A stretch of 35,851 nucleotides of DNA from a virus. Its lineage: Duplodnaviria; Heunggongvirae; Uroviricota; Caudoviricetes. The number at the start of each line of letters is the position of its first letter. The stretch's first letter is position 1. The stretch lies in the IMG/VR virus record IMGVR_UViG_2909288124_000002, one strand, 5' to 3'. Positions 1 to 35,032 of the stretch are shown in pieces. The notes below the pieces were generated by a model. That model worked only from the letters and a program-made list of their open reading frames with translations. It did no database searches and had not been told where the DNA came from. Both the position numbers and the translations under genes were made by a program.

Positions 1-234
1 ATGAAATCAAAAGACACCCTAAAGTGGTTCCCTGCGCAGCTTCCTGAAGTAAGAATTATCCTAGGGGATGCTGTAGTGGAAGTAGCAAAACAGGGAAGAC
101 CTATCAATACCAGAACATTGCTTGATTACATTGAAGGAAACATAAAGAAAAAATCATGGCTGGATAACAAAGAATTATTACAAACAGCGATATCAGTTCT
201 TAAAGACAACCAAAATTTAAATGGTAAAATGTAA
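1..234 (+). CDS. ydfK: YdfK/YnaE-family prophage protein (77 aa); window begins at its ATG
   Basis: 77-aa ORF MKSKDTLKWFPAQLPEVRIILGDAVVEVAKQGRPINTRTLLDYIEGNIKK... recognised as the YdfK/YnaE family that sits next to pin in Qin/Rac prophages; recalled from memory, not searched. Confidence 0.6.
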   Translation: MKSKDTLKWFPAQLPEVRIILGDAVVEVAKQGRPINTRTLLDYIEGNIKKKSWLDNKELLQTAISVLKDNQNLNGKM

Positions 235-540
235 TATAATAAACTTACTTTTTTATCATTTTTCCACTTTAACAACATTTTGCTCCACTTTTCCACGACC
301 AAACAACTTGAAATTTGGTTAAAATAACACGCAACACTATTCTTCTTCCTTGAGTCCGCCCGGAACTCGAAAAACAAACCGAGTTAAAGCCATTTTTCAC
401 AAAATCGATTTTGGGTCTCACCAAAGTTACGGGGTTGCATACGCATTCGTTTATTTTCGAACGTGTACATACAAATATGCACAAAAATAATCAAAATTAT
501 TTTCTGAGATGCATTATGATATGAACACCAATTTCGTATA

Positions 541-549
541 GAGTCTCAC
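541..549. repeat. Left copy of 9-bp target site duplication GAGTCTCAC flanking IS1
   Basis: Identical 9-mer GAGTCTCAC directly abuts both IS1 termini (541-549 and 1318-1326). Confidence 0.85.
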
Positions 550-564
550 GGTAATGACTCCAAC

Positions 565-1068
565 TTATTGATAGTGTTTTATGTTCAGATAATGCCCGAT
601 GACTTTGTCATGCAGCTCCACCGATTTTGAGAACGACAGCGACTTCCGTCCCAGCCGTGCCAGGTGCTGCCTCAGATTCAGGTTATGCCGCTCAATTCGC
701 TGCGTATATCGCTTGCTGATTACGTGCAGCTTTCCCTTCAGGCGGGATTCATACAGCGGCCAGCCATCCGTCATCCATATCACCACGTCAAAGGGTGACA
801 GCAGGCTCATAAGACGCCCCAGCGTCGCCATAGTGCGTTCACCGAATACGTGCGCAACAACCGTCTTCCGGAGCCTGTCATACGCGTAAAACAGCCAGCG
901 CTGGCGCGATTTAGCCCCGACGTATCCCCACTGTTCGTCCATTTCCGCGCAGACGATGACGTCACTGCCCGGCTGTATGCGCGAGGTTACCGACTGCGGC
1001 CTGAGTTTTTTAAATGGCGGAAAATCGTGTTGAGGCCAACGCCCATAATGCGGGCGGTTGCCCGGCAT
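565..1068 (-). CDS. insB: IS1 InsB reading frame (167 aa); expressed as InsAB' by -1 frameshift at A6C motif (plus coords 1005-1011)
   Basis: [19 protein letters not shown]...[10 protein letters not shown]... is IS1 InsB; AAAAAAC slippery motif is present on the minus strand in the insA/insB overlap. Confidence 0.9.
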
Positions 1069-1262
1069 CCAACGCCATTCATGGCCATATCAATGATTTT
1101 CTGGTGCGTACCGGGTTGAGAAGCGGTGTAAGTGAACTGCAGTTGCCATGTTTTACGGCAGTGAGAGCAGAGATAGCGCTGATGTCCGGCAGTGCTTTTG
1201 CCGTTACGCACCACCCCGTCAGTAGCTGAACAGGAGGGACAGCTGATAGAAACAGAAGCCAC
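987..1262 (-). CDS. insA: IS1 InsA (91 aa)
   Basis: [46 protein letters not shown]... is the IS1 InsA zinc-finger/HTH protein. Confidence 0.93.
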
Positions 1263-1317
1263 TGGAGCACCTCAAAAACACCATCATACACTAAATCAGT
1301 AAGTTGGCAGCATCACC

Positions 1318-1326
1318 GAGTCTCAC
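1318..1326. repeat. Right copy of 9-bp IS1 target site duplication GAGTCTCAC
   Basis: Exact repeat of 541-549; ends 1 nt before the invertase ATG at 1328. Confidence 0.85.
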
Positions 1327-1327
1327 T

Positions 1328-1918
1328 ATGTCTCGAATTTTTGCTTACTGTCGGATATCAACGCTGGATCAGACCACCGAAAATCAACGCCGGGAAATCG
1401 AAAGTGCAGGTTTTAAAATCAAACCTCAGCAAATAATCGAAGAACACATTAGCGGCTCAGCAGCAACCAGTGAGCGTCCTGGTTTTAACCGGTTGCTTGC
1501 TCGCCTGAAATGTGGTGATCAATTGATTGTGACAAAACTGGATCGCCTTGGTTGTAATGCAATGGATATCAGGAAAACAGTGGAACAACTGACCGAAACA
1601 GGTATCAGAGTGCATTGCTTAGCATTGGGGGGCATTGACCTGACCAGTCCAACAGGAAAAATGATGATGCACGTAATTTCAGCAGTCGCTGAATTTGAAC
1701 GAGACCTTTTACTTGAACGCACTCATTCCGGGATAGTAAGAGCCCGCGGCGCAGGGAAACGTTTTGGTCGACCACCTGTGTTAAATGAAGAACAGAAACA
1801 GGTGGTATTCGAACGAATTAAGTCAGGTGTAAGTATAAGTGCCATTGCCCGGGAATTCAAAACCTCGCGGCAAACCATTTTAAGAGCCAAAGCAAAACTT
1901 CAGACACCTGACATATAA
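1328..1918 (+). CDS. pinQ: Serine recombinase, Pin-type DNA invertase (196 aa)
   Basis: ORF from ATG at 1328: [29 protein letters not shown]... with N-terminal catalytic Ser motif and C-terminal HTH ([19 protein letters not shown]). The ORF-track start at 1304 lies inside IS1 and is rejected. Symbol is from memory of Qin/Rac Pin proteins. Confidence 0.8.
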
Positions 1919-2027
1919 AAAATAATCTCGGTGTGAGATGCTTTACGTCTTCCAAGCCCCCTTCCTTGCCGTAAATGGAAAGATACATCTAATTATAGAA
2001 TTTATATGTTTTACCCTACGGCAGTGC

Positions 2028-2031
2028 TGGC
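2028..2031. repeat. Left copy of putative 4-bp target site duplication TGGC flanking the IS3-family element
   Basis: TGGC at 2028-2031 and again at 3253-3256, immediately outside the TGACC...GGTCA termini. Confidence 0.6.
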
Positions 2032-2102
2032 TGACCTGCTCCCCGTTGATTAGTACACCCCGATGTTAGTAATGTCTTCATAAGCCACATGAGGACATCC
2101 CC

Positions 2103-2366
2103 ATGAAGAAGCGTTTTTCCGACGAACAGATCATCAGTATTCTCCGCGAAGCCGAAGCTGGGGTACCCGCCCGTGAACTCTGCCGCAAGCATGCCATTTC
2201 CGATGCCACGTTTTACACCTGGCGTAAGAAGTATGGCGGTATGGAGGTGCCTGAAGTTAAGCGCCTGAAGTCGCTTGAGGAAGAGAACACCAGACTCAAG
2301 AAGCTGCTTGCCGAAGCCATGCTGGATAAAGAGGCGCTTCAGGTGGCTCTTGGGCGAAAGTACTGA
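2103..2366 (+). CDS. IS3-family transposase OrfA (HTH, leucine-zipper region)
   Basis: 87-aa [49 protein letters not shown]... typical of IS3/IS407-group OrfA. Confidence 0.85.
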
Positions 2367-2389
2367 CGACAGACCAGAAGCGGGAAGCC

Positions 2390-3223
2390 GTGATGTTGAT
2401 GTGTGATGCGACCGGTCTGTCGCAACGTCGTGCCTGCAGGCTTACAGGTTTATCCCTGTCGACCTGCCGCTATGAGGCTCACCGTCCGGCTGCTGATGCG
2501 CATTTATCAGGGCGCATCACTGAGCTGGCACTGGAGCGCAGGCGTTTTGGCTACCGTCGTATTTGGCAGTTGCTGCGCCGTGAAGGGCTTCATGTTAATC
2601 ATAAGCGCGTGTACCGGCTTTATCACCTCAGTGGCCTGGGCGTAAAACGCAGAAGACGTCGTAAAGGGCTGGCAACAGAACGTCTGCCGCTGCTCCGTCC
2701 GGCGGCGCCCAATCTGACCTGGTCGATGGATTTCGTCATGGACGCACTTTCCACCGGTCGCAGGATCAAGTGTCTTACCTGCGTCGATGATTTCACAAAG
2801 GAATGCCTGACGGTCACTGTTGCCTTTGGGATTTCAGGCGTTCAGGTCACGCGTATTCTGGACAGCATTGCACTGTTTCGAGGCTATCCGGCGACGATAA
2901 GAACTGACCAGGGGCCGGAGTTCACTTGCCGTGCACTGGATCAATGGGCCTTTGAGCATGGTGTTGAGTTGCGCTTAATCCAGCCGGGCAAGCCAACGCA
3001 GAACGGATTTATTGAGAGCTTTAACGGACGATTTCGCGATGAATGTTTGAATGAGCACTGGTTCAGCGATATCGTTCATGCCAGGAAAATTATTAATGAC
3101 TGGCGGCAGGATTATAACGAATGCCGCCCGCACTCCACGCTGAATTATCAGACACCGTCTGAATTTGCAGCGGGCTGGAGAAAGGGTCATTCTGAGAATG
3201 AAGATTCCGACGTTACTAACTGA
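2390..3223 (+). CDS. IS3-family transposase OrfB (DDE integrase core); probably made as OrfAB fusion by -1 frameshift
   Basis: ORF (GTG-initiated in the ORF track) with DDE residues: ...WSMDFV..., ...IRTDQGPEF..., ...[13 protein letters not shown]...; frame is -1 relative to orfA. The slippery site was not located. Confidence 0.85.
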
Positions 3224-3249
3224 GTGTTGTATCTAATCGTGGGGGCAGG

Positions 3250-3816
3250 TCATGGCCATTCAATATCCTGTGCAGTTGACGTATCAACACGGTTCAGCAA
3301 TACCCGATACTTTTTCCATGCTTCCAGCAACGAGATTTCTTCCTCCGTTGCAATTTCCAGATCTGCAGCATCCTGAAGCGGCGCAATATGCTCACTGGCT
3401 ACCTGCATCAGGTTGTTTTTTGTTTCTTCCGCCTCCCGGATCCGGAACAGTTTTTCTGCTTCCGTATCCTTCACCCAGGCTGTGCCGTTCCACTTCTGAA
3501 ACTCCCCTTCCGGCGATAACCAGGTAACATTTTCCGGTAACGGACCGAGTTCAGAAATAAATAACGCGTCGCCGGAAGCCACGTCATAAACCGTTTTACC
3601 CCGATGATCTTCAACGAGATGCCACGATGACTCATCACTGTTGAAAACAGCCACGAAGCCAGCCGGAATATCTGGCGGTGCAATATCGGTACTGTTTGCT
3701 GGCAGACCTGTATGAGGCGGAATATATGCATCACCTTCACCAATAAATTCATTAGTTCCGGCCAGCAGATTATAAATTTTTATGGTCCGTGGTTGTTCAC
3801 TCATTCTGAATGCCAT
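3250..3816 (-). CDS. tfa: Tail fiber assembly protein Tfa (lambda Tfa-like), C-terminus truncated by the IS insertion
   Basis: 188-aa [42 protein letters not shown]... matches lambda Tfa; the stop codon TGA is supplied by the IS terminus (3250-3252). Confidence 0.88.
3253..3256. repeat. Right copy of putative 4-bp target site duplication TGGC
   Basis: See 2028-2031. Confidence 0.6.
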
Positions 3817-6800
3817 TATGCAAGCCTCACAATATAGTTAAATGCGATGTTTTTGACGGTGTTTTCCGCGTTACCAGCAGCGTTAACGGTGATGGTGTGT
3901 CCATGTGAACCAATCGCAACGGAGTGCGTATGAGCACCAATACCGACAGTATGCGCGTGTGCACCTGCAGATGCTGCTGTGCCGGACAGTGAGTGGCTAT
4001 GATTACCATCTGTACTGGTATTAGCTAACCACCCCGTAGACATACCTACTGAGCCTTGTACACCCCAGGTATTTTGACCTGAGCTTGTATAACCATATTG
4101 ATAAGTATCTTTAAAAACACTGGGGTTAAATCGACGGCCATCTCTATGGCTGTGATTACCAGCTGCATTCGTGCTGCCACTTAAACTATGGGTATGCGCA
4201 CCAGTGTTATTCGTGGATTTAGTGCCGTAATCAAACGACGATGTGGTTTTCGTCCCCAAATCCGTACTGGATGCGCTGGCGCTGTGGGTATGCGATTTAA
4301 TGCCGTCCTGTTCCTGAGACAATACGGCCCGACCACTGGCAGGTTTGCCCTTAATCGTCCAGCCACGCATATCAGGGATCACGCCTGACGGATAAGCCGC
4401 TGCAAGTTTCGGGTATGCAGATTTGTCAAAAGTCTGCCCCTGCATCAGGGCATAGCCAGACGGAACGGTATCTGATGGCCACGGGATTGGTGCACCGACT
4501 GGATAAAACTCTGCAGGAGGATGAGCCGAGGTGTAAAGCTGCGCCCACGGCGACCAGTTTGCGTCGGTCGTATCCCGTCGTGAACGAATAAATGCCGGAG
4601 CATGAGCACCGCTTGTACCACTCCAGCCGATGAGTAACTCACCTTCGCCAACGGCTGTCATCCCTTTCAGGTGAATGATATTTCCATACGCTGTTGGATA
4701 TCCGTTGTTATACACCTCGTATAACTCAAGACCTGCTGCCCCCTGCGTATTGTCTGTCAGCGCGGTTACCCGACCTTTTGAAGCCAGATTAACTGATGAT
4801 ACTGCTGTTCCACCTGACGGTAACGCCCCGATCTCTGATGCCGTTGGCTTATTTCTGGAGTTATAGTCCCTTCGCCAGCCAGGTGAATAATCTGTTCCGT
4901 GATTAATATAGGTAAACTGGGCGTTAGTTGTTCCACCACCAGTGGAGGTGGTCGGTGTGGTAATGCGGATCGTCATCGCTGACTTTATCCCCATTACTTC
5001 AATGACAGCTCCGGCGAGATGAATATTACCGCAGTCAGTATCAGTAATGATTTTATTATTGCCATAAGACCAGGAACCCTTGCACATCCAGTATGGATGG
5101 TTAAATGCTCCCTGAGAATCCAGCCACTCGATAAACTGTGCAGTCGTCCAGTTTCCTGTTGTTGTGCTTACTGACCCACCGAAGGCACGGCAGGCACCAA
5201 TATTTTTCGTAAAGGTATCTTTGCCAGGGATATCCGCACCGTTCTGATCTTTCTGCAGACGTTTCTCAGCATTGTCATTGGCTGCTTTTACTGCCTTTGG
5301 TGTCGCGGCAAGCGTTTCAGACGTGCTGTTGGTCGCGCTGCTTAGCTGGATTATCCCTTTCTGTGCTGTCGTTGCATCCTGTGCGGTGTATTTCCCGTTA
5401 GCCAGGTCATACGCGGCCTTAACGGCTTTTGGTGTTGCCGCCAGTGACTCGGAAGTGCTGTTAGTCGCACTACTGAGCTGTACTATCCCCTTTTTCGTCG
5501 TGCTCGCATCCTCAAGCGCCACGGCGGATGCAATATCCTCTGCCCGTTTTGCTGCTGTCTCGGCGCGCGTTGCTGCGGATTCTGCCGTACTTTTGCTCTG
5601 TGCTGCCGCTGCCGCACTGCCAGCAGCCTCTGTCGCCTTCGTGGATGCCGTCGTGGCGCTGCCCCTCGCTGCTGACGCCTGTCTGGTCGCCTCATCTTTT
5701 GAAGCAGACGCCGATGATGCCGATGACGCCGCCGAACTGGCGGACGATGCGGCAGCCGTTTTTGAGGATTCTGCGCTGGTTTCCGACGCTTTCGCGTTCG
5801 TTTCGGATGTCTTCGCTGCGGAAGCAGACCTCGCTGCTGCGCTGGCCTGTTCAGTGGCTTCGCCAGCCTTCGTTGTGGCTGTTGAAGCGGATGATGCGGC
5901 GCTTTCTGCCGATTTTCCGGCGGCGGTGGCACTGACTGCTGCCTCCTCTGCCTTAATGGACGCCTCACGGGCCGATGATGCAGCTGTTGTCTCAGAGTCT
6001 GCCGCAGCTGAGGCGCTCTGTTCCGCTGCCGTTTCAGAAGACTTAGCATTCGTCTCGGACGTTTTTGCCGCCTTCACGGAATTTCCTGCCGCCGTTGCCG
6101 AGGAGGCTGCACTGCTGGCGCTTGTGGAGGCGTTCGTTTCTGATGATTTTGCCGCCTCTTTGGAGGCCGCCGCATCCCGGGCTGAAGTGGCGGCTTCTGA
6201 CGCTTTCGTCGTCGCAGTGGATGCAGAAGTGGCTGCTGATTTTTGTGACGCTGCAGCATTCGTTTCTGACGTTTTCGCGGCACCGGCACTGGTGGCCGCC
6301 GCGCTTTTTGAGGACTCTGCAGCGGCAGCACTTTTTGATGCTTCAGTGGCCTTTGTTGATGCCGTTCCTGCGCTGGAAGACGCCTCCTGAGCCGACGTCG
6401 CGGCCTGTCCGGCTGACGTGCTGGCTGCACGCGCTGAGCCTGCAGCATCAGTCGCATGGGTTGCCGCCTCACTGGCAGATGTGCCGGCATCACTGGCTGA
6501 CTTCTTCGCGGCTGCCGTGTTCTGTGCCACCGCGGACGCGTTACGCGCCACCTCTTCCACCATCAGTTCAAAACGGCGCAGAGCCTCCGGACGGGCATCA
6601 TCCTCCGTCATGGCACCGAGAAAATCATTCAGCGTACCGGGTCGGGAATCTTCATACACGGTGATGGTCCCGGCATGTGACGGCGGGAATCCTTCCACCA
6701 ACAGAATAACGCTGTACTGACCGTACTCAACGTCCATGCTGTAACGCCCGGCTTCATCCGGATTTTCTGAGGCCAGCGTGTTCACCACCACCGTGGTGCT

Positions 6801-6887
6801 GTTACGTTTTGCTTTCAGCTGGATTGTGCAGTTCTGTACCGGTTTTCCTGTGCCGTCTTTCAGTACACCTGAAATCTTTACTGCCAT
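3816..6887 (-). CDS. stf: Side tail fiber protein Stf (lambda Stf-like, long form, about 1023 aa)
   Basis: N-terminus [26 protein letters not shown]... and C-terminus ...[24 protein letters not shown] match lambda Stf; ATG at 6887 follows a GGGG Shine-Dalgarno (ORF track begins 2 codons earlier at GTG 6893). Confidence 0.9.
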
Positions 6888-6894
6888 ATTCACC

Positions 6895-6926
6895 CCACAA
6901 AAAAGCCCGCCTGAACCGGCGGGCTG
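6895..6926 (-). terminator. Putative intrinsic terminator downstream of lom, overlapping the stf ribosome-binding region
   Basis: Minus-strand hairpin AGCCCGCC-GGTTCA-GGCGGGCT followed by TTTTTTG. Confidence 0.55.
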
Positions 6927-6951
6927 TCATAACACTGTGTTACCTGGCTAA

Positions 6952-7551
6952 TCAGAACTTATAACCGACACCCACGATGAAACCGTCAGTGCGCCAGTCG
7001 CCACTGCCGGAGCCTTCATAAGCAATATCAATGGCCACGGATTCGGTCGGGTTAAACTGCACGCCAGCTCCCCACGCCAGAGACGTGTTGCTGTGGCGAC
7101 CGTCATCACTTCCGGTCAGCACGTCGTGCGTTTTCCCCTTGTTGTCAGTTACGCGGAGATAATCCCCGGAGAAAGTCGACACACGGCTGTAAGCCACACC
7201 CGCCATCGCATACGCGCTGAACCATTCATTCACGCGCACAGACGGCCCCGCCATTACGCTGAACCAGCGGTTACGAACGGAATCTTCATGCCAGCGGGTA
7301 TCGCTGTAACGGGTCAGCTGGCGATTCTTGTCTCCTGCATAGCTGAATGACGTCACCAGCCCCAGCGTATCCGTAAACTCATAACGGTATTTCACGTTAA
7401 TCCCGTTCAGATCATCACTGCCGGGAACGTTGGTCCGGGCATGAAGATACCCCGCGCTCAGCGTGGACTGATGTTCAGACGCCCATGCAGGCGCACCGGA
7501 TACGGCCAGACAAATGGCTGCGGACAAAATGGCTGCACAAACTTTACGCAT
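6952..7551 (-). CDS. lom: Lom outer membrane protein (Ail/Lom family)
   Basis: 199-aa ORF with signal peptide MRKVCAAILSAAICLAVSGAPAWA and beta-barrel-like C-terminus ending ...GVGYKF; sits between J and stf as in lambda. Confidence 0.9.
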   Translation of the reverse strand: MRKVCAAILSAAICLAVSGAPAWASEHQSTLSAGYLHARTNVPGSDDLNGINVKYRYEFTDTLGLVTSFSYAGDKNRQLTRYSDTRWHEDSVRNRWFSVMAGPSVRVNEWFSAYAMAGVAYSRVSTFSGDYLRVTDNKGKTHDVLTGSDDGRHSNTSLAWGAGVQFNPTESVAIDIAYEGSGSGDWRTDGFIVGVGYKF

Positions 7552-7621: not shown

Positions 7622-10600
7622 TCAACGAATACTGATGCCTGAAGCCGCTTTTTTGGTCACAATCACCGTACAGTCGGTGATATTACCTGCCCGCTGATTG
7701 CCTTTATGGAAAACCTTAAACTCCAGAGTGACGCTTCCCCTGCCACTCGGCATATCAATAACCGCACTGTAGCTACCGGGAATGGCCCCTTTAGTTTCTC
7801 TGGATGCGATTAATACACCGTTTTTGCGAACTTCAAAACCATAACCCGTGTATCTTGTACCTCCCGGGTTATTACCACTTCCCGGATCGCTATACGCTAT
7901 TCCGTTAAAGATAATGGGCGGAATAATGATTTGACGGTCAAAGTTATGATCATCGCTGATGGTGACTGTAACCGTCCCGTTTGGTGTTTCCGTATTACCC
8001 CACGTACCAGCCTGTTTCGGGAATGATTTGGATACAGCTTTAACGAAGTCACCTCTGACCTGAGTCGCCTCCAGCATGCCCTTAATCGTACAGTTTTCAT
8101 TTACCGTGACATTGTTGAGCGTCCCGGCGTTCGCATTCACACTGCCACTGATATCCGCATTTTTAGCGGTCAGCTTTCCGTCTGATGTCAGGGAAAATGC
8201 CGGTGGATTTCCACCGCTGGTAATGGTCGGGGCCGTCAGGCGCTTCAGGAACACGTCGTTCATAAATATCTGATTGCCCTGCGCCACAAACATCGGCGTT
8301 TCATTCCCGTTTGCCGGTTCAATAAACGCGATACGGTTAGCGGCAACCAGAAACTGGCTCAGCTTACCTTCTTCCGTGTCCTCCATGCTGAGGCCAATAC
8401 CCGCGACATAATGTTTGCCGTCTTTGGTCTGCTCAATTTTGACGCCCCACATGGCATTCCACTTATCGTTAGCGTCCTGCCACTCTTTCGAAAACTCCTC
8501 CAGTCTGCTGGCGTTATCCTCCGTCAGCTCGACTTTTTCCAGCAGCTCCTTGCCGAGATGGGATTCGGTTATCTGGCCTTTGAAAAAATCCAGGTAACCT
8601 TCCGCATCATCGCTCGCCTGACCGACAGCCTCCACGAATGCCGATTTGCCAACGGTGTTCACACTGCGGATATAAAAGTAATAATCATGGCCCGGTTTGA
8701 TATTGATACTGGCGGCTATCCAGTACAGCGCCGTACCAAGATAGCGGGCTGTGGTTTCAACCTGCCTGATATCGGTAATCCGCGTTTCCGAGAACCAGAA
8801 CTCAAACTGTACCGTCGGATCATAAACCGCAAGATGCGGCGTGGCAGTTATCTGAAAATAGCCCGGCGTCAGCTCAATCCGCGACGGCGCTGCCGGGGCG
8901 GCAATCCGGAACGATACCGACGCCGGATCGCCCTGCTGTCCCCGGGCATTTACCGCCCGGACCGTCAGCATGTAACGCCCCAGCGCCAGTTGCGTGAAGC
9001 GGTATGTGGTTTCCGTCGTCCGGGCCGTGCTGACCAGCCGCTCACTGCCGTCATCCGCTGCCACGGTCAGGCGAAGCAGGAAGCTCACGCCCTTCACCAC
9101 CTTCGGCGTGTCCCAGCGGGCCAGCACCTGATATTCCCCACTGTCTGCGGTGACTTCGGCAGTCAGGTGCTGCACCGCTGGCGGCGTGACACCATTCACC
9201 GTGCCGCTCTGGTCGCCGTCAAAGTGCGCCCCGTTATCCACGATGGCCTCTTTCTCCGGTACATGCTGCACGGCAGTGATGGCATACGTGCCGTCATCGT
9301 TCTCACGGATACTCACGCAGCGGAACAGGCGCTGGCGCAACGTCGGCAGCTTCAGCCCCCATATGCTGTATCCGGCAACGCCGTCAGGAACACGGCTCAC
9401 TTTTACCTTCACGCCGTCGGTGACGGACTGGACCTCCACGCTGACCGGATTGCCTCTTCCGTCAACCAGGCTTATCAGCGTGGTACCGGAGGATGGCAGC
9501 GTGATTTCACGGTCGAGCGTCAGCGTCCGGGTCTGGCTGTTCACCGCCAGCACGCGACCACCGGTGCTGATACCGGCATAGTCATCATCGCAGATTTCAA
9601 TGACATCGCCCGGTACATGGCGAAGCCCTTCAGCACCCACGCTGAAATCCACGGTCTGCGTCTCCAGCAGTTCCGTTTTAATCAGCCACAGCCCGGCGCG
9701 GTGTGCCTGCCCCCGGCTGGTACAGCCAAAGGCATCCATCTTCGTGACATTACGACCGTAACGGGCAATGGCCTGCGTATCTTCAACAAGCTCTGTCGCC
9801 GTCTCCCAGCCGTTGTTCGGGTCAATCCAGTTCACCTCAACGGCATTATGGCGGTCCTTCAGGGCGCTGAAGCTGTAGCGGAACGGCGCGCCATCATCCG
9901 GCATCACCACATTACTGCGGTTATAGGTCCACACCTTATCTGATGGTCGGTCCTGCACGAACGTCAGCGTCTGCCCGTTCCATACCGGCATACAGCGCAT
10001 CGCCGAGCAGAAATCACTGAGCACATCCCACGCCTTACGCTGCGTGGTCAGCCAGGCATTACAGGTGATGCGCGGCTCCGTGCCGCCAAAGCCGTCCGGC
10101 ACTGACTGGTCGCAGTACTGGCCGATGACATACAGCGCCCATTTATCCACATCCGCCGCACCAAGACGTTTCCCCATGCCGTAGCGCGGGTGGGTCAGCA
10201 TATCCCACAGACACCAGGCCGGGTTGTTGCTGTATGCCGGCTTAAACGTTCCGTCCCAGATACCGCTGTATTGCCGCGTCTGCGGGTTATAGTTCGACGG
10301 CACCTGCAGAATGCGCCCGCGAAGATGATAATTACGGCTCACCTGCTGGCTGCCGAACTGCTCCGAGTCCACCTGCACGCCGACCAGTGCCGTGTTCGGG
10401 TAGCACTTTTCACATCGATGATTTCGGTGTATGACGACCAGAGCGTTTTGTTCTGCAGCTGGTCTGTGGTGCTGTCCGGCGTCATCCTGCGCATCCGGAT
10501 ATTAAACGGGCGCGGCGGCAGGCTACCCACCACCACCGAGGCCAGATACTGCGAGGTGGTTTTGCCCTTAATGGTGATGTCTTTTTCCGTCACCCAGCCA

Positions 10601-11034
10601 CCGTTACGTTGTATCTGAACCAGCAGACGGACTTCCGACGGATTCCTGTCACCCTTTGAGGTGGTTTCCACCAGTGCCTGTACACCGAAGGTAAAGCGCA
10701 GACGGTCGATGTTTGCAGACGTAATGGTGCGGGTGATCGGCGTGTCATATTTCACTTCCGTACCCAGCACCGTCTCGGAGCCGGAGGATTCAAACCCCTC
10801 CGGCGGTGTCTGCTCCTGCTCACCGGCACGGAACACCACCGTGACACCGGAGATGTTGGTATTCCCCTCAGTGTCCAGCACCGGCGTACTGTTCAGCAGC
10901 ACGCTTTTTAATCCATCCACCGGACCTTCAACCGGCCCTTCGCTGATGGCATCGATCACACTCAGCAACTGCGTGGACTTCAGGTTGTCCTTCGCTTCGC
11001 GCGGGGTATGCCCCTTACTGCTTCCTTTACCCAT
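7622..11034 (-). pseudogene. J: Tail tip / host specificity protein J, interrupted by a frameshift near 10405-10412
   Basis: Two consecutive ORFs in different frames both match lambda J: 10339..11034 (MGKGSSKGHTPREAKDNLKSTQLLSVIDAISEGP...) and 7622..10378 ([27 protein letters not shown]...). The N-terminal frame ends ...[14 protein letters not shown] where lambda J continues ...[23 protein letters not shown]. Confidence 0.8.
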
Positions 11035-11094
11035 TCCTCATGCTCCATAAATGACAAAACCGCCCGCAGGCGGTTTCACATAAAACATTTTGCA

Positions 11095-11766
11095 TCAGCG
11101 ACCAATCACCACAACCTGACCACCGTCCCCTTCGTCTGCCGTGCTGATCTCCTGAGAAACCACGCGTGACCCCACGCGCATTTCCCCGTACAGAACAGGC
11201 AGAACATTGCCCTGGGCAACCATGTTATCCAGTGAGGAGAAATAGGTGTTCTGCTTACCGTTATCCGTTGTCTGTGTACGGGGAGTTCTGGCTTTCGGTG
11301 CCAGCATCTGCGCCACACCACCAAGTACCATACTGGCACCGAGAGAAAACAGGATACTGGTCATACCACCGGCCCCAATGGCTGCCCCCCATGCTGCAAG
11401 GGTGGCTCCGGCAGTAAAGAATGATCCGGCAATGGTGGCAGCCCCCAGAACAATCTGGAATACGCCCCCTGACTTGGCCCCGGCGACTCTGGGAACAATA
11501 TGAATCACAGCGCCGTCAGGCAGAACCTCATGTAACTGCGCCGTCAATCCGGACGTGCTGACGTCCCGCCCGGAAATCCGTACCTGATACCAGCCGTCGC
11601 TCAGTTTCTGACGAAACGCCGGGAGCTGTGTGGCCAGCGCCCGGATGGCTTCAGCCCCCGTTTTCACACGAAGGTCGATGCGGCGGCCAAATCGTTGTAA
11701 ATCCCCGTAAAGGCAGATGCGCGCCATGCCCGGTGACGCCAGAGGGAGTGTGTGCGTCGCTGCCAT
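11095..11766 (-). CDS. I: Tail assembly protein I (223 aa)
   Basis: ORF MAATHTLPLASPGMARICLYGDLQRFGRRIDLRVKTGAEAIRA... matches lambda I; overlaps the end of K by 103 nt as in lambda. Confidence 0.92.
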   Translation of the reverse strand: MAATHTLPLASPGMARICLYGDLQRFGRRIDLRVKTGAEAIRALATQLPAFRQKLSDGWYQVRISGRDVSTSGLTAQLHEVLPDGAVIHIVPRVAGAKSGGVFQIVLGAATIAGSFFTAGATLAAWGAAIGAGGMTSILFSLGASMVLGGVAQMLAPKARTPRTQTTDNGKQNTYFSSLDNMVAQGNVLPVLYGEMRVGSRVVSQEISTADEGDGGQVVVIGR

Positions 11767-12407
11767 TTGTCGGTATACCTCTCTCGTTTGCTCAGTTGTT
11801 CAGGAATATGGTGCAGCAGCTCGCCGTCACCACAGTAAATGGCGGCATGATTCGGCATCGATGAACCAAAACAGCACAGCAGCACATCGCCCGGTTGTGC
11901 TGATGACAACGGCACCTGATACAGCCCTGTGGCCTCCAGATTATCCAGATAGAGATTCTGGCCGTGACGCCACCAGTCATCCCCGCGATGAAAATCCGGC
12001 ATCTCAATCCCCGCCAGATGATAAGCATCCCGGAACAGCGTGTAACAGTCCGTCACCCCGTGCTCAAAGCGCCGCCCGGTGAGATGCGGCACACAGCGGA
12101 ACTTATGAATCGCCCCCCGGCAGACCAGCAACCACGGCAAATCACTCTGCACCTGCAGCCGCCGGTCAGCCTCACTCAGCCAGGGCAGACCACCGGGGTG
12201 GCTGTGGACCAGCGCCACAATCTCACCCTGCATTTCTGCCTGCAGCCAGTCCTCCGGAGCCATCCGGAAATAATCCTCCGGCTCACCGGAAATATTCACG
12301 CAGGGAAAATATCTTTCCCCCTCCGGCGTGCTTACCACGAAGCCGCACGACTCCGCTGGCGCACATCGCCGGGCGTGCGCCAGAATCGCTGATTCTGTCT
12401 CTGTCAT
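11664..12407 (-). CDS. K: Tail tip assembly protein K (MPN/JAMM plus NlpC/P60 domains)
   Basis: ORF from MTETESAILAHARRCAPAESCGFV...; JAMM-type motif HSHPGGLPWLSEAD and NlpC/P60-like Cys/His residues; the start sits 4 nt after the L stop. The classical lambda annotation uses a later start. Confidence 0.88.
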   Translation of the reverse strand: MTETESAILAHARRCAPAESCGFVVSTPEGERYFPCVNISGEPEDYFRMAPEDWLQAEMQGEIVALVHSHPGGLPWLSEADRRLQVQSDLPWLLVCRGAIHKFRCVPHLTGRRFEHGVTDCYTLFRDAYHLAGIEMPDFHRGDDWWRHGQNLYLDNLEATGLYQVPLSSAQPGDVLLCCFGSSMPNHAAIYCGDGELLHHIPEQLSKRERYTDKWQRRTHSLWRHRAWRASAFTGIYNDLAAASTFV

Positions 12408-12411
12408 GGGA

Positions 12412-13110
12412 TTACTGCGAAAGTTTGTTAATGGAAAGGAAGCCGCCAAAGTTGCCGACGTTATTGCGAAACTTACAGCCGCTCAGGCATTTGCTGCATT
12501 TATCCTTCGTGATATCGGACGTTGGCTGGTCATATTCATCCGCGACAGCCGGACCGCTATAACCGCACTCGTCACCGCGATAGGTCCAGGTGCAGGTGTT
12601 GGCCAGCATGATACGTCCCGGAAAAACAGCGCCATCCGTTTCCGTCGGCGTGGACAGTACAAAGGAGGCACTCACCGCGCTCAGTTCGCTGCACTGCTCA
12701 ATGCGCCAGCGGCTGATCACCTCCTGCTCCGGATCGGCGTAACTGTTTCCGTTGACGAAGTTCACCGCATCCAGAAAACGGGCGTAAACCTTACGCCGGA
12801 CCACCGTTCCGCCGACCAGACTCTGCATATCTTCCGCCATCCCGGTGACCATACCGTACAGGTTAGAAACCGTCAGCGTGGGGCGCGTACTGGTGCCTTT
12901 GCCATTCAGTTCAAAACCGCTCCCCTGAATGGGATACGGCTGATACTGTCGCCCCTGCCAGGTGACCGGCTCACCTTTTTCGTTCTGCTCATTACAGAAA
13001 AAATAACGTTCTCCACCGACCTCTGTCAGGTCGATTTCCCAGAGCACCACGCTGGCCGACTGCTCCGCACGGGTGCATTCATTCAGTGTTTCCTGCCGGA
13101 TATCCTGCAT
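12412..13110 (-). CDS. L: Minor tail protein L (232 aa)
   Basis: ORF MQDIRQETLNECTRAEQSASVVLWEIDLTEVGGERYFFCNEQ... matches lambda L. Confidence 0.93.
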   Translation of the reverse strand: MQDIRQETLNECTRAEQSASVVLWEIDLTEVGGERYFFCNEQNEKGEPVTWQGRQYQPYPIQGSGFELNGKGTSTRPTLTVSNLYGMVTGMAEDMQSLVGGTVVRRKVYARFLDAVNFVNGNSYADPEQEVISRWRIEQCSELSAVSASFVLSTPTETDGAVFPGRIMLANTCTWTYRGDECGYSGPAVADEYDQPTSDITKDKCSKCLSGCKFRNNVGNFGGFLSINKLSQ

Positions 13111-22118: not shown

Positions 22119-25799
<3,681 letters not shown>

Positions 25800-25825
<26 letters not shown>

Positions 25826-26345
25826 TCAGCAACCCCGGTATCAGTTCATCCAGCGCGGCTGCTTTGTTCATGGCTTTGATGATATCCCGTTTCAGGAAAT
25901 CAACATGTCGGTTTTCCAGTTCCGGAAAACGCCGCTGCACCGACAGGGGGATCCCGTCGAGAATACTGGCAATTTCACCTGCGATCCGCGACAGCACGAA
26001 AGTACAGAATGCGGTTTCCACCACTTCAGCGGAGTCTCTGGCATTTTTCAGCTCCTGTGCGTCGGCCTGCGCACGCGTAAGTCGATGGCGTTCGTACTCA
26101 ATAGTCCCTGGCTGGAGATCTGTCTCGCTGGCCTGCCGCAGTTCTTCAACTTCCCGGCGCAGCTTTTCGTTCTCAATTTCAGCATCCCTTTCGGCATACC
26201 ATCTTATAACGGCGGCAGAGTCATAAAGCACCTCATTACCCTTGCCACCGCCTCGCAGAACGGGCATTCCCTGTTCCTGCCAGTTCTGAATGGTACGGAT
26301 ACTCGCACCGAAAATGTCAGCCAGCTGCTTTTTGTTGACTTCCAT
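25800..26345 (-). CDS. nu1: Terminase small subunit Nu1 (181 aa)
   Basis: ORF MEVNKKQLADIFGASIRTIQNWQEQGMPVLRGGGKGNEVLYD... matches lambda Nu1; overlaps A by 26 nt as in lambda. Confidence 0.94.
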
Positions 26346-26733
26346 TGTTCATTCCACGGCCAAAAACAGAGAAAGGAAACGACAGAGGCCCAAAAGCTCG
26401 TTTTCAGCACCTGTCGTTTCCTTTCTTTTCAGGGGGTATTTTAAATAAAAACATTAAGTTACGACGAAGAAGAACGGAAATGCCTTAAACCGGAAAATTT
26501 TCATAAATAGCGAAAACCCGCGAGGTCGCCGCCCCGTAACCTGTCGGATCACCGGAAAGGACCCGTAAAGTGGTAATGATTATCATCTACATATCACAAC
26601 GTGCGTGGAGGCCATCAAACCACGTCAAATAATCAATTATGACGCAGGTATCGTATTAATTGATCTGCATCAACTTAACGTAAAAACAACTTCAGACAAT
26701 ACAAATCAGCGACACTGAATACGGGGCAACCTC
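26346..26733 (-). other. Lambda-type cos region (cosB, cosN, cosQ); cosN 12-nt cohesive end AGGTCGCCGCCC at 26523-26534 (reverse complement of GGGCGGCGACCT)
   Basis: Sequence upstream of Nu1 reads as the reverse complement of the lambda left end (GGGCGGCGACCTCGCGGGTTTTCGCTATTTATGAAAATTTTCCGG...) joined to the lambda right end (...CGGTGATCCGACAGGTTACG); recalled from memory. Confidence 0.85.
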
Positions 26734-26967
26734 ATGTCAACGAAGAACAGAACCCGCAGAACAACAACCCGCAACATCCGCTTTCCTAACCAAATGATTG
26801 AACAAATTAACATCGCTCTTGAGCAAAAAGGGTCCGGGAATTTCTCAGCCTGGGTCATTGAAGCCTGCCGCCGGAGACTGTGCTCAGAAAAAAGAGTTTC
26901 TTCTGAAGCAAACAAAGAAAAGAGTGACATTACTGAATTGCTCAGAAAACAGGTCAGACCAGATTGA
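26734..26967 (+). CDS. ynfO: Small prophage protein (YnfO-like, 77 aa)
   Basis: ORF MSTKNRTRRTTTRNIRFPNQMIEQINIALEQKGSGNFSAWVIEACRRRL...; position between cos/Nu1 and ydfO as in Qin. Symbol from memory of gene order. Confidence 0.6.
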   Translation: MSTKNRTRRTTTRNIRFPNQMIEQINIALEQKGSGNFSAWVIEACRRRLCSEKRVSSEANKEKSDITELLRKQVRPD

Positions 26968-27024
26968 AGCAATTTAGATAATCGTGCAGACTACGCCCCC
27001 TCATATCACATGGAAGGTTTATCT

Positions 27025-27435
27025 ATGGATCAGGTAGTCATTTTTAAACAAATATTTGATAAAGTTCGAAACGATTTAAACTATCAATGGTTTTATTCTG
27101 AGCTAAAACGTCACAATGTCTCACATTACATTTACTATTTAGCCACAGAGAATGTTCATATTGTATTAAAAAATGATAATACAGTGTTATTAAAGGGCCT
27201 AAAAAACATTGTGTCTGTCAAATTTTCAAAGGATAGGCATCTTATAGAAACGACCTCTAATAAGCTGAAATCCAGAGAGATCACATTTCAGGAATACAGA
27301 AGAAACCTTGCTAAAGCAGGAGTTTTTCGGTGGGTTACAAATATCCACGAACAAAAAAGATATTACTATACCTTTGATAATTCATTACTATTTACTGAAA
27401 GCATCCAGAAAACTACACAGATCTTACCACGCTAA
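27025..27435 (+). CDS. ydfO: DUF1398-family prophage protein YdfO (136 aa)
   Basis: From [43 protein letters not shown]...; the ORF track begins 5 codons upstream. Confidence 0.8.
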
Positions 27436-27586
27436 ACCATAACGTCCGGCTTCTCTCACTCCTGAGCCGGACTGCATTGGTTTAATAAAAACCATCAACA
27501 ATTGTGATTTAGATATTCGGAACCATTCAAATATAACAAAACCCCGTAAAAACGAGGTTTATGGATAAATTTTATTATTGAATACA

Positions 27587-27760
27587 TCAGATTAAATTAA
27601 TCTTGACATCATAGCTTTCAAGACCCGTCATTTTTTCCCGTGCGGTAAACTGAATACTGGTAACTTCTTTCCCGGTCTTTTTCTTAAGTTCAATAATTTT
27701 TTTTGTTATATATTCAGAAATATCTGCTTCTGCTTTTGTTTTTAAGTTTTCAATATTCAT
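27587..27760 (-). CDS. gnsB: GnsA/GnsB-family small protein (57 aa)
   Basis: Hand-translated minus-strand ORF MNIENLKTKAEADISEYITKKIIELKKKTGKEVTSIQFTAREKMTGLESYDVKINLI, preceded by AGAGGAA; below the ORF-track size cutoff. Confidence 0.75.
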   Translation of the reverse strand: MNIENLKTKAEADISEYITKKIIELKKKTGKEVTSIQFTAREKMTGLESYDVKINLI

Positions 27761-27931
27761 CATTTCCTCTTTTAGTCTGTTATGACTTTCCAGTTACACA
27801 GTAAGTCGATTATATGGTGCAAACGTGTAAAAGATAAGATGAAACATCGCAATAATCAACATACGATAGTCTAAATTTTACACAAACAGACAAAGAGAAT
27901 TTTCCTGAATTATCAATGCAATAGCATCAAA

Positions 27932-28162
27932 TCAACTCAAGAGCCTTATTGCTGCTTCCAGAATTTCTTCTGAAGTAACATGTCGATCCGCGGCTACATA
28001 AATGACTTTATGATCTCCGGTCAGAGATGGAAACCCTGCGGCCATTACAGTAAGGTGTGTTTTTTCGCCATTTGGATATTCACGCATGATGGTGTTAACT
28101 CCAGTCATCGCTGGCACTACCACTGCTGGTTCAGAGTTAAAAAAAACTATGATTTTTTTCAT
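27932..28162 (-). CDS. Hypothetical small protein (about 76 aa)
   Basis: ORF from MKKIIVFFNSEPAVVVPAMTGVNTIMREYPNGEKTHLTVMAAGFP...; family not recognised; start uncertain (ORF track begins at 28204). Confidence 0.45.
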   Translation of the reverse strand: MKKIIVFFNSEPAVVVPAMTGVNTIMREYPNGEKTHLTVMAAGFPSLTGDHKVIYVAADRHVTSEEILEAAIRLLS

Positions 28163-28433
28163 GATGTTACCGTAGTATGTGAGTATCCATCGAATAGACA
28201 CCAAGCAAAAAAGCTCCCGAAGGAGCCTTCATTTTCACTTTTTTAAATCCAACGACAGACGGCTGGCATTTAAGTATTGTGAAATATTATCAAATGTAAT
28301 CATCATTGATTTACAAAAGATACATTTTGCCCCGAAAGGATTCATGTCAGAAACATCAAAAGATGATGTTCTATACTGGGAACCATGACAACACGGGCAT
28401 CTAAAGTGAATATGGTTTGTAATATTGTCTACC

Positions 28434-28646
28434 TCAAAGCGCCACTACATGAACAGCGGCAGGACCTTTAGGTCCGTTCTCAATACCAAATTCAACTTCC
28501 TGATTCTCAGTTAATGTTTTGAAATCGTTGCTCTGAATTGCTGAGAAATGGACAAACACATCTTTGCTGCCATCTTTCGGCGTGATGAAACCAAAACCTT
28601 TTTCAGGGTTAAACCATTTCACTAAACCAGTCATTTTGTTAGACAT
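28434..28646 (-). CDS. cspI: Cold shock protein CspI (70 aa)
   Basis: [73 protein letters not shown] with RNP1/RNP2 cold-shock domain motifs. Confidence 0.9.
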
Positions 28647-29008
28647 AATTATTACCTTTTGAAGAAATTAGCCCTTGGGCAGAATGGTCCGAAAAAAAAT
28701 ATCAGAGAGAAAAACCAACAAGGAAATCTCAAGAGGTACAAATAATAAAATTATAACAATGACTGCTTCAGATAAATTTGTAACAAACCAGAACACCATT
28801 AACGCATGATTAACCACCCATAGCAAGGATTACTTTTGTAAAGAAAAACACAGCAATGAAAGAATAGCTTTATTTATTAATAAAACGTGTCATTCTGATT
28901 AAGACCTTTTATCTTACCCTTAAGATTTCAGGAATTTTGGCTCATGGAAGAGTCCTTTTTATTTAAATTTTACATTCCGCGATGTAAATGTTCCGATTTA
29001 ATATTACC

Positions 29009-30032
<1,024 letters not shown>

Positions 30033-30036
<4 letters not shown>

Positions 30037-30344
30037 AGATATTTATGATGAGGACGCTCGTGCTTATTGGCAGGATTTTCAATCTTAAAGGAGTATTGAT
30101 GCTGCAGATAAGACTCAACTTTTTCTGACAATTTTTCTGCTACTTCCAGGAAGACTTGCCGGACGCTCCTTCTGGCTGCTGCCTCATAAAACTCCAGCGC
30201 AGCTCCTTCAACACGGTCCATGGCGACATCCAGGTCAAAAATTTCACCGTCAAAGCGTTCTTTGTCCTGTAAGGCTACAGTTACCGTAACTTTATTCTCA
30301 AAATTACGGACTCCTTTCACAACCAGTTCATAGTCTTGAGTCAT
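30033..30344 (-). CDS. ydfR: YdfR (DUF1327) lysis-cassette-associated protein (103 aa)
   Basis: ORF MTQDYELVVKGVRNFENKVTVTVALQDKERFDGEIFDLDVAMD...; located between holin and endolysin. Confidence 0.8.
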
Positions 30345-30348
30345 TGGA

Positions 30349-30564
30349 TTACTCTCCTCTCGCAGCCTTACGCCTGTCTTCTTTAATCTTGAAATAAAGA
30401 TTTGTCAGATACGTCAGCAGGCCAAAAACCAGGCTACCCAGCACACCGATTGCAGCCCACTGTGACGGAGTTACTTTATCGAGTAACTGCAATGCCCAGA
30501 AACCAGCATTACCCGCCGATGTGCCATAGGCAACACCTGTTGTTAACTTATCCATTGATTTCAT
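30349..30564 (-). CDS. essQ: Pinholin, phage 21 S-type class II holin (71 aa, dual-start MKSMDK)
   Basis: From [71 protein letters not shown]; two TMDs; GAGGA Shine-Dalgarno before the ATG at 30564. The ORF track extends to 30639. Confidence 0.85.
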
Positions 30565-30783
30565 ATCCTCACCCCGATGTACACGGATGGTGCAATATGT
30601 TTGAAAAGATCGGAGTCTACGGGGTAGTTTTGACAGCACACGTTGTTCTCAACGGCGCTAAAAAAACATACACATTAAAAATGTGGGTAATTATTTTGAA
30701 AGAAAGTCATATATAAAATAATAATACGAGAAATGTTTTCATATTTAGTGTACTGTATACGGCCATTTATACAGGAAAAGCCT

Positions 30784-30954
30784 ATGTCAGAACGTAAAAA
30801 CTCAAAATCACGCCGTAATTATCTCGTTAAATGTTCCTGCCCAAACTGCACCCAAGAGTCAGAACACAGTTTTTCAAGAGTACAAAAAGGTGCCCTTTTG
30901 ATCTGCCCTCATTGCAACAAAGTATTCCAGACAAATCTTAAAGCTGTAGCCTGA
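30784..30954 (+). CDS. Putative small zinc-ribbon protein (56 aa), unknown function
   Basis: ORF MSERKNSKSRRNYLVKCSCPNCTQESEHSFSRVQKGALLICPHCNKVFQTNLKAVA with CPNC...CPHC pairs; AGGAAAAG Shine-Dalgarno 4 nt before the ATG; followed by a hairpin terminator. Confidence 0.55.
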   Translation: MSERKNSKSRRNYLVKCSCPNCTQESEHSFSRVQKGALLICPHCNKVFQTNLKAVA

Positions 30955-31012
30955 TTGATTTTATTAGTAACAAGTATTTTTTATATTTTAATAATATATT
31001 TAAAGCAGATAA

Positions 31013-31040
31013 TAAAAAACCCGCCTGAGCGGGTTTGAGA
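31013..31040. terminator. Bidirectional intrinsic terminator (cspB 3' end and small plus-strand ORF)
   Basis: Hairpin AAACCCGC-CTGA-GCGGGTTT flanked by an A-run on one side and a T-rich tract on the other; the minus-strand reading gives stem then TTTTTTATTATC. Confidence 0.65.
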
Positions 31041-31317
31041 TTGTGGTGCTTTTTGTGGGAGTCATCCACTTACGCACTTTGTTTTGCCATGCCAGCAGTT
31101 AGCTTCTGCTGTAAAACTATTCATGCAGCAAACCTGCACTTCACCACAATGGTTAGCATACTTTTCCTGATTAAGATTTTGCCAAATATGCTAGCCATTG
31201 TTTCATGTATTGGACCTCCTTACTTTTTATTAAAGAGATCCAATATTCACTACTCTGTCCGTATCTCTACTCAGGCATCAGCCTTCTTCGTTATCGTATA
31301 CAGACGAGCGATGAATT

Positions 31318-31533
31318 TTAATCAGTAATGATGACATTTGCTGCTGCAGGACCTTTAGCACCACTCTCTATAGAGAAGGTAACCTTTTGACCTTCAAATA
31401 AGGTTCGATAATTATCATTCTGAATCGCAGAAAAATGCACAAACACATCTTTACTACCATCAACAGGAGAAATAAAGCCGAAACCTTTATCAGCGTTAAA
31501 CCATTTTACTAAACCAGTCATTTTATTTGACAT
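31318..31533 (-). CDS. cspB: Cold shock protein CspB (71 aa)
   Basis: [74 protein letters not shown]. Confidence 0.92.
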
Positions 31534-31833
31534 TCTACATTCCTTAACTTGAGCCTTTCGGCATAAATGGTTTGCATAACAGAAACGACTTCGTACTTAA
31601 TTGGAGAGACTCAAAGAAGGAATAAGTGAATAACACCTGAAATGAGAACTGCTTTAGTAAACTACTTCGTATATCGTCTGTTCTTCAAACCGACGCAATC
31701 ATTAACGCATAGTTGAACATATGAAGCAATGTTTATTTTAGACATCCAGCCATCTTCAACCCCATCAAAAAACTATAGCTTTCTTCAGGAACGTGTGTAT
31801 AGTGCGCCAAGTTATCAGTATTAAGGAATTTTT

Positions 31834-32046
31834 TTGTCCCGTAAAATGACAGGAATTGTCAAAACCTTTGACGGCAAAAGCGGCAAGGGTCTTATCACCC
31901 CATCCGATGGTCGTATCGATGTCCAGCTTCATGTTTCAGCGCTCAATCTCCGCGATGCAGAAGAAATTACCACCGGATTACGCGTGGAATTTTGCCGGAT
32001 AAATGGTCTGCGTGGCCCTTCAGCTGCCAATGTTTACCTTTCATGA
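31834..32046 (+). CDS. cspF: Cold shock protein homolog CspF (70 aa)
   Basis: [73 protein letters not shown]. Confidence 0.9.
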
Positions 32047-32467
32047 GCTATATTAAAGCTTTAATTTCAGGCCCCATCGGATCACACATGGAGAGTTTTT
32101 ATGAATAACCCCGTCTGTCTTGATGACTGGTTGATTGGCTTTAAAAGCTTATGCTGTACTTTGGCCGTAATAGCTCTGCTAATAATATAATAAGCAGACT
32201 CATTGTGTTTAGGGACATTGTACTGGAAGAAAACATTTTAAACATCAGGCAAATAACCAAGTCACCAGCTAAATAATAAGTTAACAGACATGAGTCCCGG
32301 GATGAGATTCAACATTACCATTGCCCCATTTAAAGCACAAAACCCGCTCATCAGCAGGTTTTCTACTTTTTCTTAACGTCGGGTATACAAAGCCCATCGT
32401 TGAAAAAATTTTATCCATATTTTTTGAAAAATGCAAACATCATGTCGCCATCTTCAGCAAAAATCAT

Positions 32468-33220
32468 TTATCTCGTCACCTTCCTCAATTGCGCTTCCGC
32501 GTATGCTTCTTCCTGCCAGCACTTTGTTACCAGTTTACCAATGACGTCCGCATACCCCTTATACCACTGATAATCGGTCAGGTCTGGTACCAGCTTCTGG
32601 ACATGACGTCGTGCCAGCGTGGTCGGTAAACGACTAAACCGGTTTCCATTACAACGCCCACAAATCTTATATACCGGTACGCCATGAAACCGGGTTCTTT
32701 TTTCATCCAGAACAATCCCTTTACCCTTACACCCTCTGCACGCTGTGCTGGCTTCGCCCTTACCATGGCAATGCTGACATAGTTCCTTCACCCATTCTTC
32801 CTTGATTACAGATTCCCCGCGTCTGTAGTGTTTCACCACTTCGCGCAATACATTATAAAATCCCGTACCTGAACAATGCTCACAGCGAGCCTTACTTGCC
32901 GCAGACCTGGAGTAATCAGCAAAGGCAAAACTCACGAGGTAAGGAATAATCTGTAACCGGATTTCTTCACTCAATTTGTTCAATGTCGGGTTATCCAGTG
33001 CCATCGCGTAATTTAGCAGGCCTTCAATCGCAAACTGAGGGTCCTGAACACCAACTTTTGCCAGAAATAAGGCCAACCCAAGTGGTGCTTTCGACTGCAC
33101 CATCCCCTGCGCTGCCATTACATCCGTAATTGTTAAACAACCGGTGCCTGTCGCTGGAGCGTCATCGCTCAATTTTGGAGATTTTGGGGAGTAATATTTT
33201 GGTAAGGCTTCAAGGTTCAT
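32468..33220 (-). CDS. quuQ: Late gene antiterminator Q (phage 21/82-type, 250 aa)
   Basis: From MNLEALPKYYSPKSPKLSDDAP...; Cys-rich zinc-binding region CEHCSGTG...CQHCHGKGEASTACRGCKGKG...CGRCNGN. The ORF track begins 10 codons upstream. Confidence 0.85.
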   Translation of the reverse strand: MNLEALPKYYSPKSPKLSDDAPATGTGCLTITDVMAAQGMVQSKAPLGLALFLAKVGVQDPQFAIEGLLNYAMALDNPTLNKLSEEIRLQIIPYLVSFAFADYSRSAASKARCEHCSGTGFYNVLREVVKHYRRGESVIKEEWVKELCQHCHGKGEASTACRGCKGKGIVLDEKRTRFHGVPVYKICGRCNGNRFSRLPTTLARRHVQKLVPDLTDYQWYKGYADVIGKLVTKCWQEEAYAEAQLRKVTR

Positions 33221-33233
33221 GCTCGTTCTCCAC

Positions 33234-34283: not shown

Positions 34284-34284
34284 G

Positions 34285-34563: not shown

Positions 34564-34629
34564 CGGTTTTCTCCGGTGGCACGGTGTTACTCAGCGGGAG
34601 TTCAGCCCCGCGCAAGATTGTAGATGAGT

Positions 34630-34881: not shown

Positions 34882-35005
34882 CAGAATCCTTCCGGATAAT
34901 TAGCTCTCCCCTTTAAGGGACCATCCCTCTTATCCCTGCGCGCTACTTAAGTATTTTTGATTCTATTCCGGCACCGTCCAGAACTTCAAACGCATTGAAA
35001 ATAAA

Positions 35006-35032
35006 AACAAAAACCCGCCGAAGCGGGTTAAG
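35006..35032 (-). terminator. Intrinsic terminator at the end of the relB-relE-hokD operon
   Basis: Minus-strand hairpin AACCCGC-TTCG-GCGGGTT followed by TTTTTGTTTTTATTTTC. Confidence 0.7.

Follow-up and report, generated by a model that had tools for sequence, protein, structure and literature searches.

Loss of a single base has probably turned the tail-tip gene J of a Qin-locus lambdoid prophage of E. coli, which carries a complete lambda-like late region, into a recent, strain-private null allele through deletion of the first C of codon 210. The window, meaning the whole stretch of DNA that was analyzed (35,851 nucleotides), holds J as two open reading frames (ORFs) of 231 and 918 aa that lie in different frames and overlap by 40 nt, in place of the single uninterrupted ORF of approximately 1130-1165 codons that characterizes a functional gpJ/TipJ. 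Coordinates of both ORFs were confirmed and are collected with those of the other features in Table 1. The first-pass annotation had proposed that the two ORFs are halves of lambda J in different frames and that loss of one base had split the gene; the ORF list, the alignment with gpJ and the Pfam assignments bear out the former, and comparison with an intact relative together with in silico repair bears out the latter.

Table 1. Coordinates of J, the lesion and associated prophage features (window positions unless stated otherwise)
Feature	Coordinates	Strand	Description
Whole J (tail tip / host specificity)	7622..11034	-	3413 nt, frameshifted pseudogene
5' ORF	10339..11034	-	J residues 1-209 plus 22 out-of-frame residues; TGA at 10341..10339
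3' ORF, 918 aa	7622..10378	-	Start is an internal GTG (mechanical count); J homology from about 10405 to the native stop
Deletion junction	10407..10408	-	Missing C of codon 210, J nt 628
GTGA overlap	10339..10342	-	Premature TGA of the 5' ORF overlaps frame-B GTG 10342..10340; read from the sequence
Left end			ydfK, then pinQ, tfaQ, 1023-aa side tail fibre gene
Tail/head module			lom, J, I, K, L, M, H, T, G, V, U, Z, FII, FI, E, D, C, B, W, A, nohA
Right-hand part			ynfO, ydfO, gnsB, cspI, lysis genes, cspB, cspF, Q (ydfT), ydfU, rem, hokD, relBE
IS1, 768 bp	550..1317		Between ydfK and pinQ; perfect 9-bp duplication GAGTCTCAC at 541..549 and 1318..1326
IS3-family element, 1221 bp	2032..3252	+	Terminal inverted repeats TGACCTGC.../...GCAGGTCA; flanking TGGC duplicated
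Frameshifted genes of E. coli UC4224 (coordinates of its locus)	2427..4992, 9794..11112, 11093..12700
IMG/VR loci with an early J stop			L027, L049, L053, L059, L066, L085, L089, L091, L114, L119, L124

The J span measures 3413 nt in the window versus 3414 nt in the phage and prophage J genes that match it from end to end, and it shows 95-97.5% identity at 100% coverage to the J genes of lambdoid phages (3414 nt each). Aligned base by base with J of E. coli 873.10 (NZ_CP061754.1), the window differs solely by one gap at position 10408, where the plus strand reads AGCACT-TTTCAC as opposed to AGCACTGTTTCAC in 873.10. On the coding strand, the codons GTG AAA CAG TGC of the intact allele lose the first base of CAG (Gln), such that the intact GTGAAACAGTGC becomes GTGAAAAGTGC in the window, with the break lying in the context ...GATGTGAAA(C)AGTGCTACC.... 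Putting the C back yields a 3414-nt gene identical to the 873.10 J, encoding 1137 aa (WP_044864105.1, "host specificity protein J"); one extra base thus restores a single 1137-codon ORF, as the first-pass annotation had anticipated. In agreement with this, tblastn placed both residues 1-209 and residues 209-1137 of J on the window, the latter at 10411..7625. The nucleotide comparison with related prophages that had been suggested as a further check returned this one gap, at 10407/10408 and inside the interval 10339-10420 within which the break had been expected. The accompanying suggestion of a break near a short A-run, perhaps a homopolymer sequencing error, held for the location but not for the nature of the change, the lost base being a C between A's with no change in the length of a run. 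Because placement of the gap is unambiguous (AAA-C-AG becomes AAAAG, and the intact allele has no homopolymer at the lost base), the loss did not shorten a homopolymer.

At the protein level, the 231-aa ORF aligns with lambda gpJ (PDB 8iyk_J and 9e7m) over residues 1-209/211 (E = 1e-132) and leaves it directly after ...SYTEIIDVK, where lambda continues with QC. The repaired or relative J protein aligns with 8iyk_J over residues 1-1131 at 2286 bits, placing it in the gpJ family by homology over its full length. The series of gpJ Pfam domains is complete above the cut-offs and is shared out over the two ORFs, with FNIII-A_GpJ at residues 86-207 of the 231-aa ORF and Phage-tail_3 (hub), Ig_J, Ig_J_second, Phage_Tail_Tip and Ig_GpJ_C on the 918-aa ORF. 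The surrounding genes retain the H-M-L-K-I-J-lom-stf-tfa synteny of a gpJ-type tail module.

The distribution of the deletion allele was explored in several collections, and in these searches it was private to this strain. When 5,426 complete E. coli genomes were searched by megablast with a junction 34-mer, each 28-nt seed having to cross the break, nothing matched. An 81-mer from the junction identified 14,494 J copies in 4,386 E. coli genomes, and among the matches listed all span 82 nt in their own record, such that none carries the deletion. Similarly, an exact 45-mer of the deletion allele had no match in GTDB representative genomes or IMG/VR, and a 26-mer had none in JGI metagenomes; a 19-mer returned only two chance matches among the GTDB representatives (an Acidobacteria MAG and a Tidjanibacter MAG). 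As a control, IMG/VR was searched with a window-derived 40-mer lying immediately downstream of the junction; of the 120 loci recovered, 119 read the in-frame AAACA (...GTGAAACA) at the junction site. If real, the deletion is very recent, given that J otherwise matches the intact allele at every base; the lack of the deletion in every other genome examined likewise indicates a young lesion.

The main rival to a real mutation is an error of sequencing or assembly, in which J of the organism is an intact 1137-codon gene from which the consensus dropped one base. This is considered unlikely, while deserving more weight than any other alternative. In its favor, the lesion amounts to one base in a J that is otherwise identical to the intact allele, the sequence without the C has a short A4/T4 run, and the allele was seen in one strain, without phylogenetic confirmation from the complete E. 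coli genomes, GTDB representatives, IMG/VR or JGI metagenomes. However, what is missing is a C between A's as opposed to a miscounted homopolymer, and the surrounding sequence has few differences from its closest relative. The closest complete genome, that of 873.10, matches window positions 3253-31123 at 99.96% identity (27,872 columns), and over these 27.9 kb there are 9 substitutions and 2 single-base gaps, with the J gap representing the only coding indel. The second indel is an intergenic A5 in the window versus A4 in 873.10 at position 27552, within AACCCCGTAAAAACGAGGTTT between ydfO and gnsB. Strain N12 matches window positions 25001-35851 at approximately 100% identity with an equal length of 10,851 nt, and it appears to share the length of the window at 27552; the J gap is the only singular indel in the 27.9 kb compared. 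Moreover, alignment of 32 other genes from the 873.10 prophage (essD through pinQ) revealed neither gaps nor frameshifts, and all of them aligned over their full length with the exception of tfaQ (188 of 191 residues). Since the neighboring genes are gap-free, the assembly is not prone to indels.

Additional evidence comes from the broken product itself. When the 231-aa product was looked up in a collection of 15 billion proteins, the exact sequence, including its out-of-frame tail, was found on record twice: in the NCBI assembly GCA_965257285.1 and in a Logan assembly of a public run. The NCBI contig (CBDGOE010000086.1, 32,759 bp) shows 100% identity to the window across the 12.7 kb compared, and coordinate arithmetic places its start at window position 3256, adjoining the end of the insertion sequence (IS) at 3252. 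In this respect, the contig resembles a short-read draft, which is its presumed platform; short-read drafts typically break at IS ends, and consensus deletions are rare on such a platform. Agreement between the NCBI and Logan assemblies argues against an assembler or polishing artefact. The two may nevertheless share one read set, in which case a systematic read error could be common to both, and their agreement falls short of read-level proof. Combined, the indirect evidence favors a real mutation, and on that basis the deletion is taken to be present in the DNA of the organism.

Two further alternatives accept the deletion as real and would leave J functional. The first, which is regarded as highly improbable, is that J works in two pieces: the 231-aa N-terminal piece (strands of the hub domain HDII plus FNIII-A) and a C-terminal piece of approximately 906 aa, restarted at the GTGA listed in Table 1, would co-assemble into a working tail tip. 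The break does fall at the C-terminal edge of FNIII-A (residues 86-207 according to Pfam and 72-215 in lambda; PMC10721106), and the way hub domains are divided over proteins differs between lambda gpL/gpJ, T5 pb3 and RcGTA gp13/gp15 (PMC10721106). Additionally, the stop/start overlap at GTGA is present and offers the only conceivable point of termination-reinitiation, and the neighboring I and K genes also lack good Shine-Dalgarno sequences, being presumably translationally coupled. On the other hand, lambda FNIII-A is inserted between the strands of HDII (PMC10721106), such that a cut at its edge interrupts HDII, and approximately 12 native residues are lost while 22 foreign ones are added. 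The arrangement is conserved in no relative, and the gene is otherwise identical to the intact allele, showing no adaptive or compensating change. Shine-Dalgarno pairing is also weak at the candidate restart codons (-2 to -3 kcal/mol) when compared with the native J start (-5.6 kcal/mol) and with lom, stf, L and H (-6 to -10 kcal/mol); given this weak pairing, efficient internal restart of J was judged unlikely. Were a two-piece J nonetheless real, the tolerated split would represent a natural two-gene version of J that is cut at a domain edge.

The second of these alternatives, programmed or leaky -1 frameshifting at G-AAA-AG that restores a full-length J (...VKKCYP...), is extremely improbable. 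A -1 shift anywhere within J nt 533-696 would restore the frame, and the junction does offer an A4 run with a lysine codon. However, the zero-frame codons GTG AAA AGT contain no X XXY YYZ heptamer, with re-pairing in the -1 frame being to GAA, and the minimum free energy of the downstream 93 nt (-27.8 kcal/mol) is indistinguishable from the mean of shuffled sequences (-28.1 kcal/mol, z = 0.07). Four A's are, moreover, too few for transcriptional slippage. The two-frame layout is also unique to the window, with no junction-spanning match in the 5,426 E. coli genomes and the in-frame sequence at 119 of the 120 IMG/VR loci. Programmed -1 frameshifting was rejected on these grounds, namely the lack of a slippery heptamer, of a stimulatory RNA structure and of conservation of the layout in homologues. 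The best reading of the lesion is therefore that of a null mutation of J.

Lambda J is essential; in Katsura's tail assembly pathway, the tail initiator begins with J, which nucleates assembly of the tail tip. In the window, ribosomes starting from the native ATG (11034) would add 209 correct and then 22 wrong residues before terminating at the premature TGA (10341..10339). The truncated product would comprise only the first HDII strands and the FNIII-A insertion. According to the lambda structure, gpJ continues after FNIII-A with the remainder of HDII, the HDII-insertion, HDIII, HDIV, FNIII-1, FNIII-2, the central fibre and a receptor-binding domain (PMC10721106), and the truncated J would be without all of these, through to the C-terminal receptor-binding domain, which amounts to almost the whole hub and the entire fibre. 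In siphophages generally, the initiator complex consists of tape measure, distal tail and hub-fibre proteins (PMC7291167). Because J nucleates tail-tip assembly in lambda, the prophage is predicted to be unable to build tails of its own, as the first-pass annotation had reasoned, and on induction a prophage lacking J would yield DNA-filled heads at most. Two routes of rescue can be envisioned: the heads might be joined to tails supplied by another resident lambdoid prophage, or J might be repaired by recombination with another resident copy of the gene. E. coli genomes that have this J segment contain a median of 2-3 copies, and acquisition of DNA by temperate phages from defective prophages is documented (PMC3945230).

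The prophage that carries the lesion is identified as occupying the Qin locus by the presence of ydfK, pinQ, tfaQ, nohA, cspI, cspB, cspF, rrrQ, rzpQ, ydfT, ydfU, rem, hokD and relBE. Window positions 1-542 match the ydfK side of the locus (ydfJ/ydfK-rspB), and positions 25001-35851 are approximately 100% identical to annotated Qin regions of several strains. The window stops at 35851, with immunity, replication and int lying beyond it, and the int/rspB end is likewise outside. E. coli K-12 has only a 20-kb remnant of Qin, and in different strains Qin measures anywhere between 11 and 97 kb (PMC6379469); the prophage in the window is a 'long' form. In its right-hand part, the Rfam family of the cspA thermoregulator 5' leader was matched twice over its full length on the minus strand (28407..28792, 112.8 bits; 31302..31694, 158.8 bits), upstream of cspI and cspB, cold-shock genes that the prophage carries.

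Outside of J, the prophage is already collecting IS insertions; at its left end, the IS1 and the IS3-family element bracket pinQ. Within the IS3-family element, Rfam matched an IS1222 frameshift element at 2333..2450 (156.6 bits), and OrfB (277 aa) spans 2390..3223. The IS3-family element is inserted 9 nt before the stop of tfaQ, such that ...DIEWP* replaces ...DIEWPALP*, and it parts pinQ from stf-tfaQ; 873.10 is without this insertion. A recent report ties PinQ-mediated inversion to phage T2 resistance (PMC12529663), and a repeat search of window positions 1-7000 for inverted repeats of at least 20 nt, as possible Pin crossover sites, found none. Two side observations concern the adjoining fibre genes. 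A full-length Rfam IS009 match (3275..3473, minus strand, 220.9 bits) lies within the tfaQ coding region and probably reflects definition of that family from K-12 Qin sequence. Opposite stf (3816..6893, minus strand), a 372-aa antisense ORF extends over 5272..6390 on the plus strand; Stf has weak tblastn similarity to the opposite strand (27-31%), and the antisense ORF most likely stems from the repetitiveness and biased composition of the fibre sequence as opposed to representing a gene.

Broken late genes were also encountered among relatives of this prophage. In the sister prophage of E. coli UC4224 (NZ_CP104472.1), the H tape measure, the C S49 protease/scaffold and the B portal genes are annotated as frameshifted. 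In IMG/VR, 72 contigs contain J over its full span; the ORF runs to 1131-1165 codons in 58 of these and is cut short by a premature stop, at positions that vary, in approximately 12. Eleven of the 72 start with ATG and stop early, at codons 334-977, with two of them sharing codon 450. Some of these premature stops may be draft-sequencing errors. With approximately 12 of 72 full-span genes broken, a disrupted J is commonplace in prophage DNA.

The break in J is most probably ordinary prophage decay, a known kind of event that involves no new mechanism; it adds one more data point to a well-documented process and raises no new question. For annotation, J should be marked as one frameshifted pseudogene as opposed to two genes, and tools for prophage prediction should not score this prophage as intact or inducible, despite a late region that otherwise looks complete. 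Qin diversity and the 'grounding' of prophages have been described previously (PMC6379469), and the loss of J offers a snapshot of the first step of such grounding, with the structural module otherwise intact and the tail initiator just lost.

Three known systems place the lesion in context. Lambda gpJ (PDB 8IYK, 8K35, 8XCG and 9E7M) has the same Pfam series as the repaired J, within the same K-I-J-lom-stf-tfa gene order; the repaired J is 1137 aa long compared with 1132 aa for lambda gpJ, and the J in the window differs in being interrupted at codon 210 by the 1-nt deletion. The Qin prophage of E. coli O18ac:H14 strain 873.10 has the same flanking late genes and a J that is identical bar one base. 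In contrast to the window, 873.10 retains an intact 3414-nt J and has a different IS3-family element next to pinQ. Its early region is absent, an IS1 (739..1436 of its locus) standing in place of all that would lie between ynfU and a truncated integrase gene. Finally, laboratory lambda carries a frameshift in stf (PMC10721106). Like the Qin, Rac and DLP12 prophages of E. coli K-12, all of them decayed, it illustrates how a tail gene can be knocked out by a single-base frameshift or an IS insertion although the remaining prophage is kept in the chromosome. Unlike the frameshift in lambda stf, the lesion described here strikes the essential J instead of a dispensable side fibre, and it is private to one strain.
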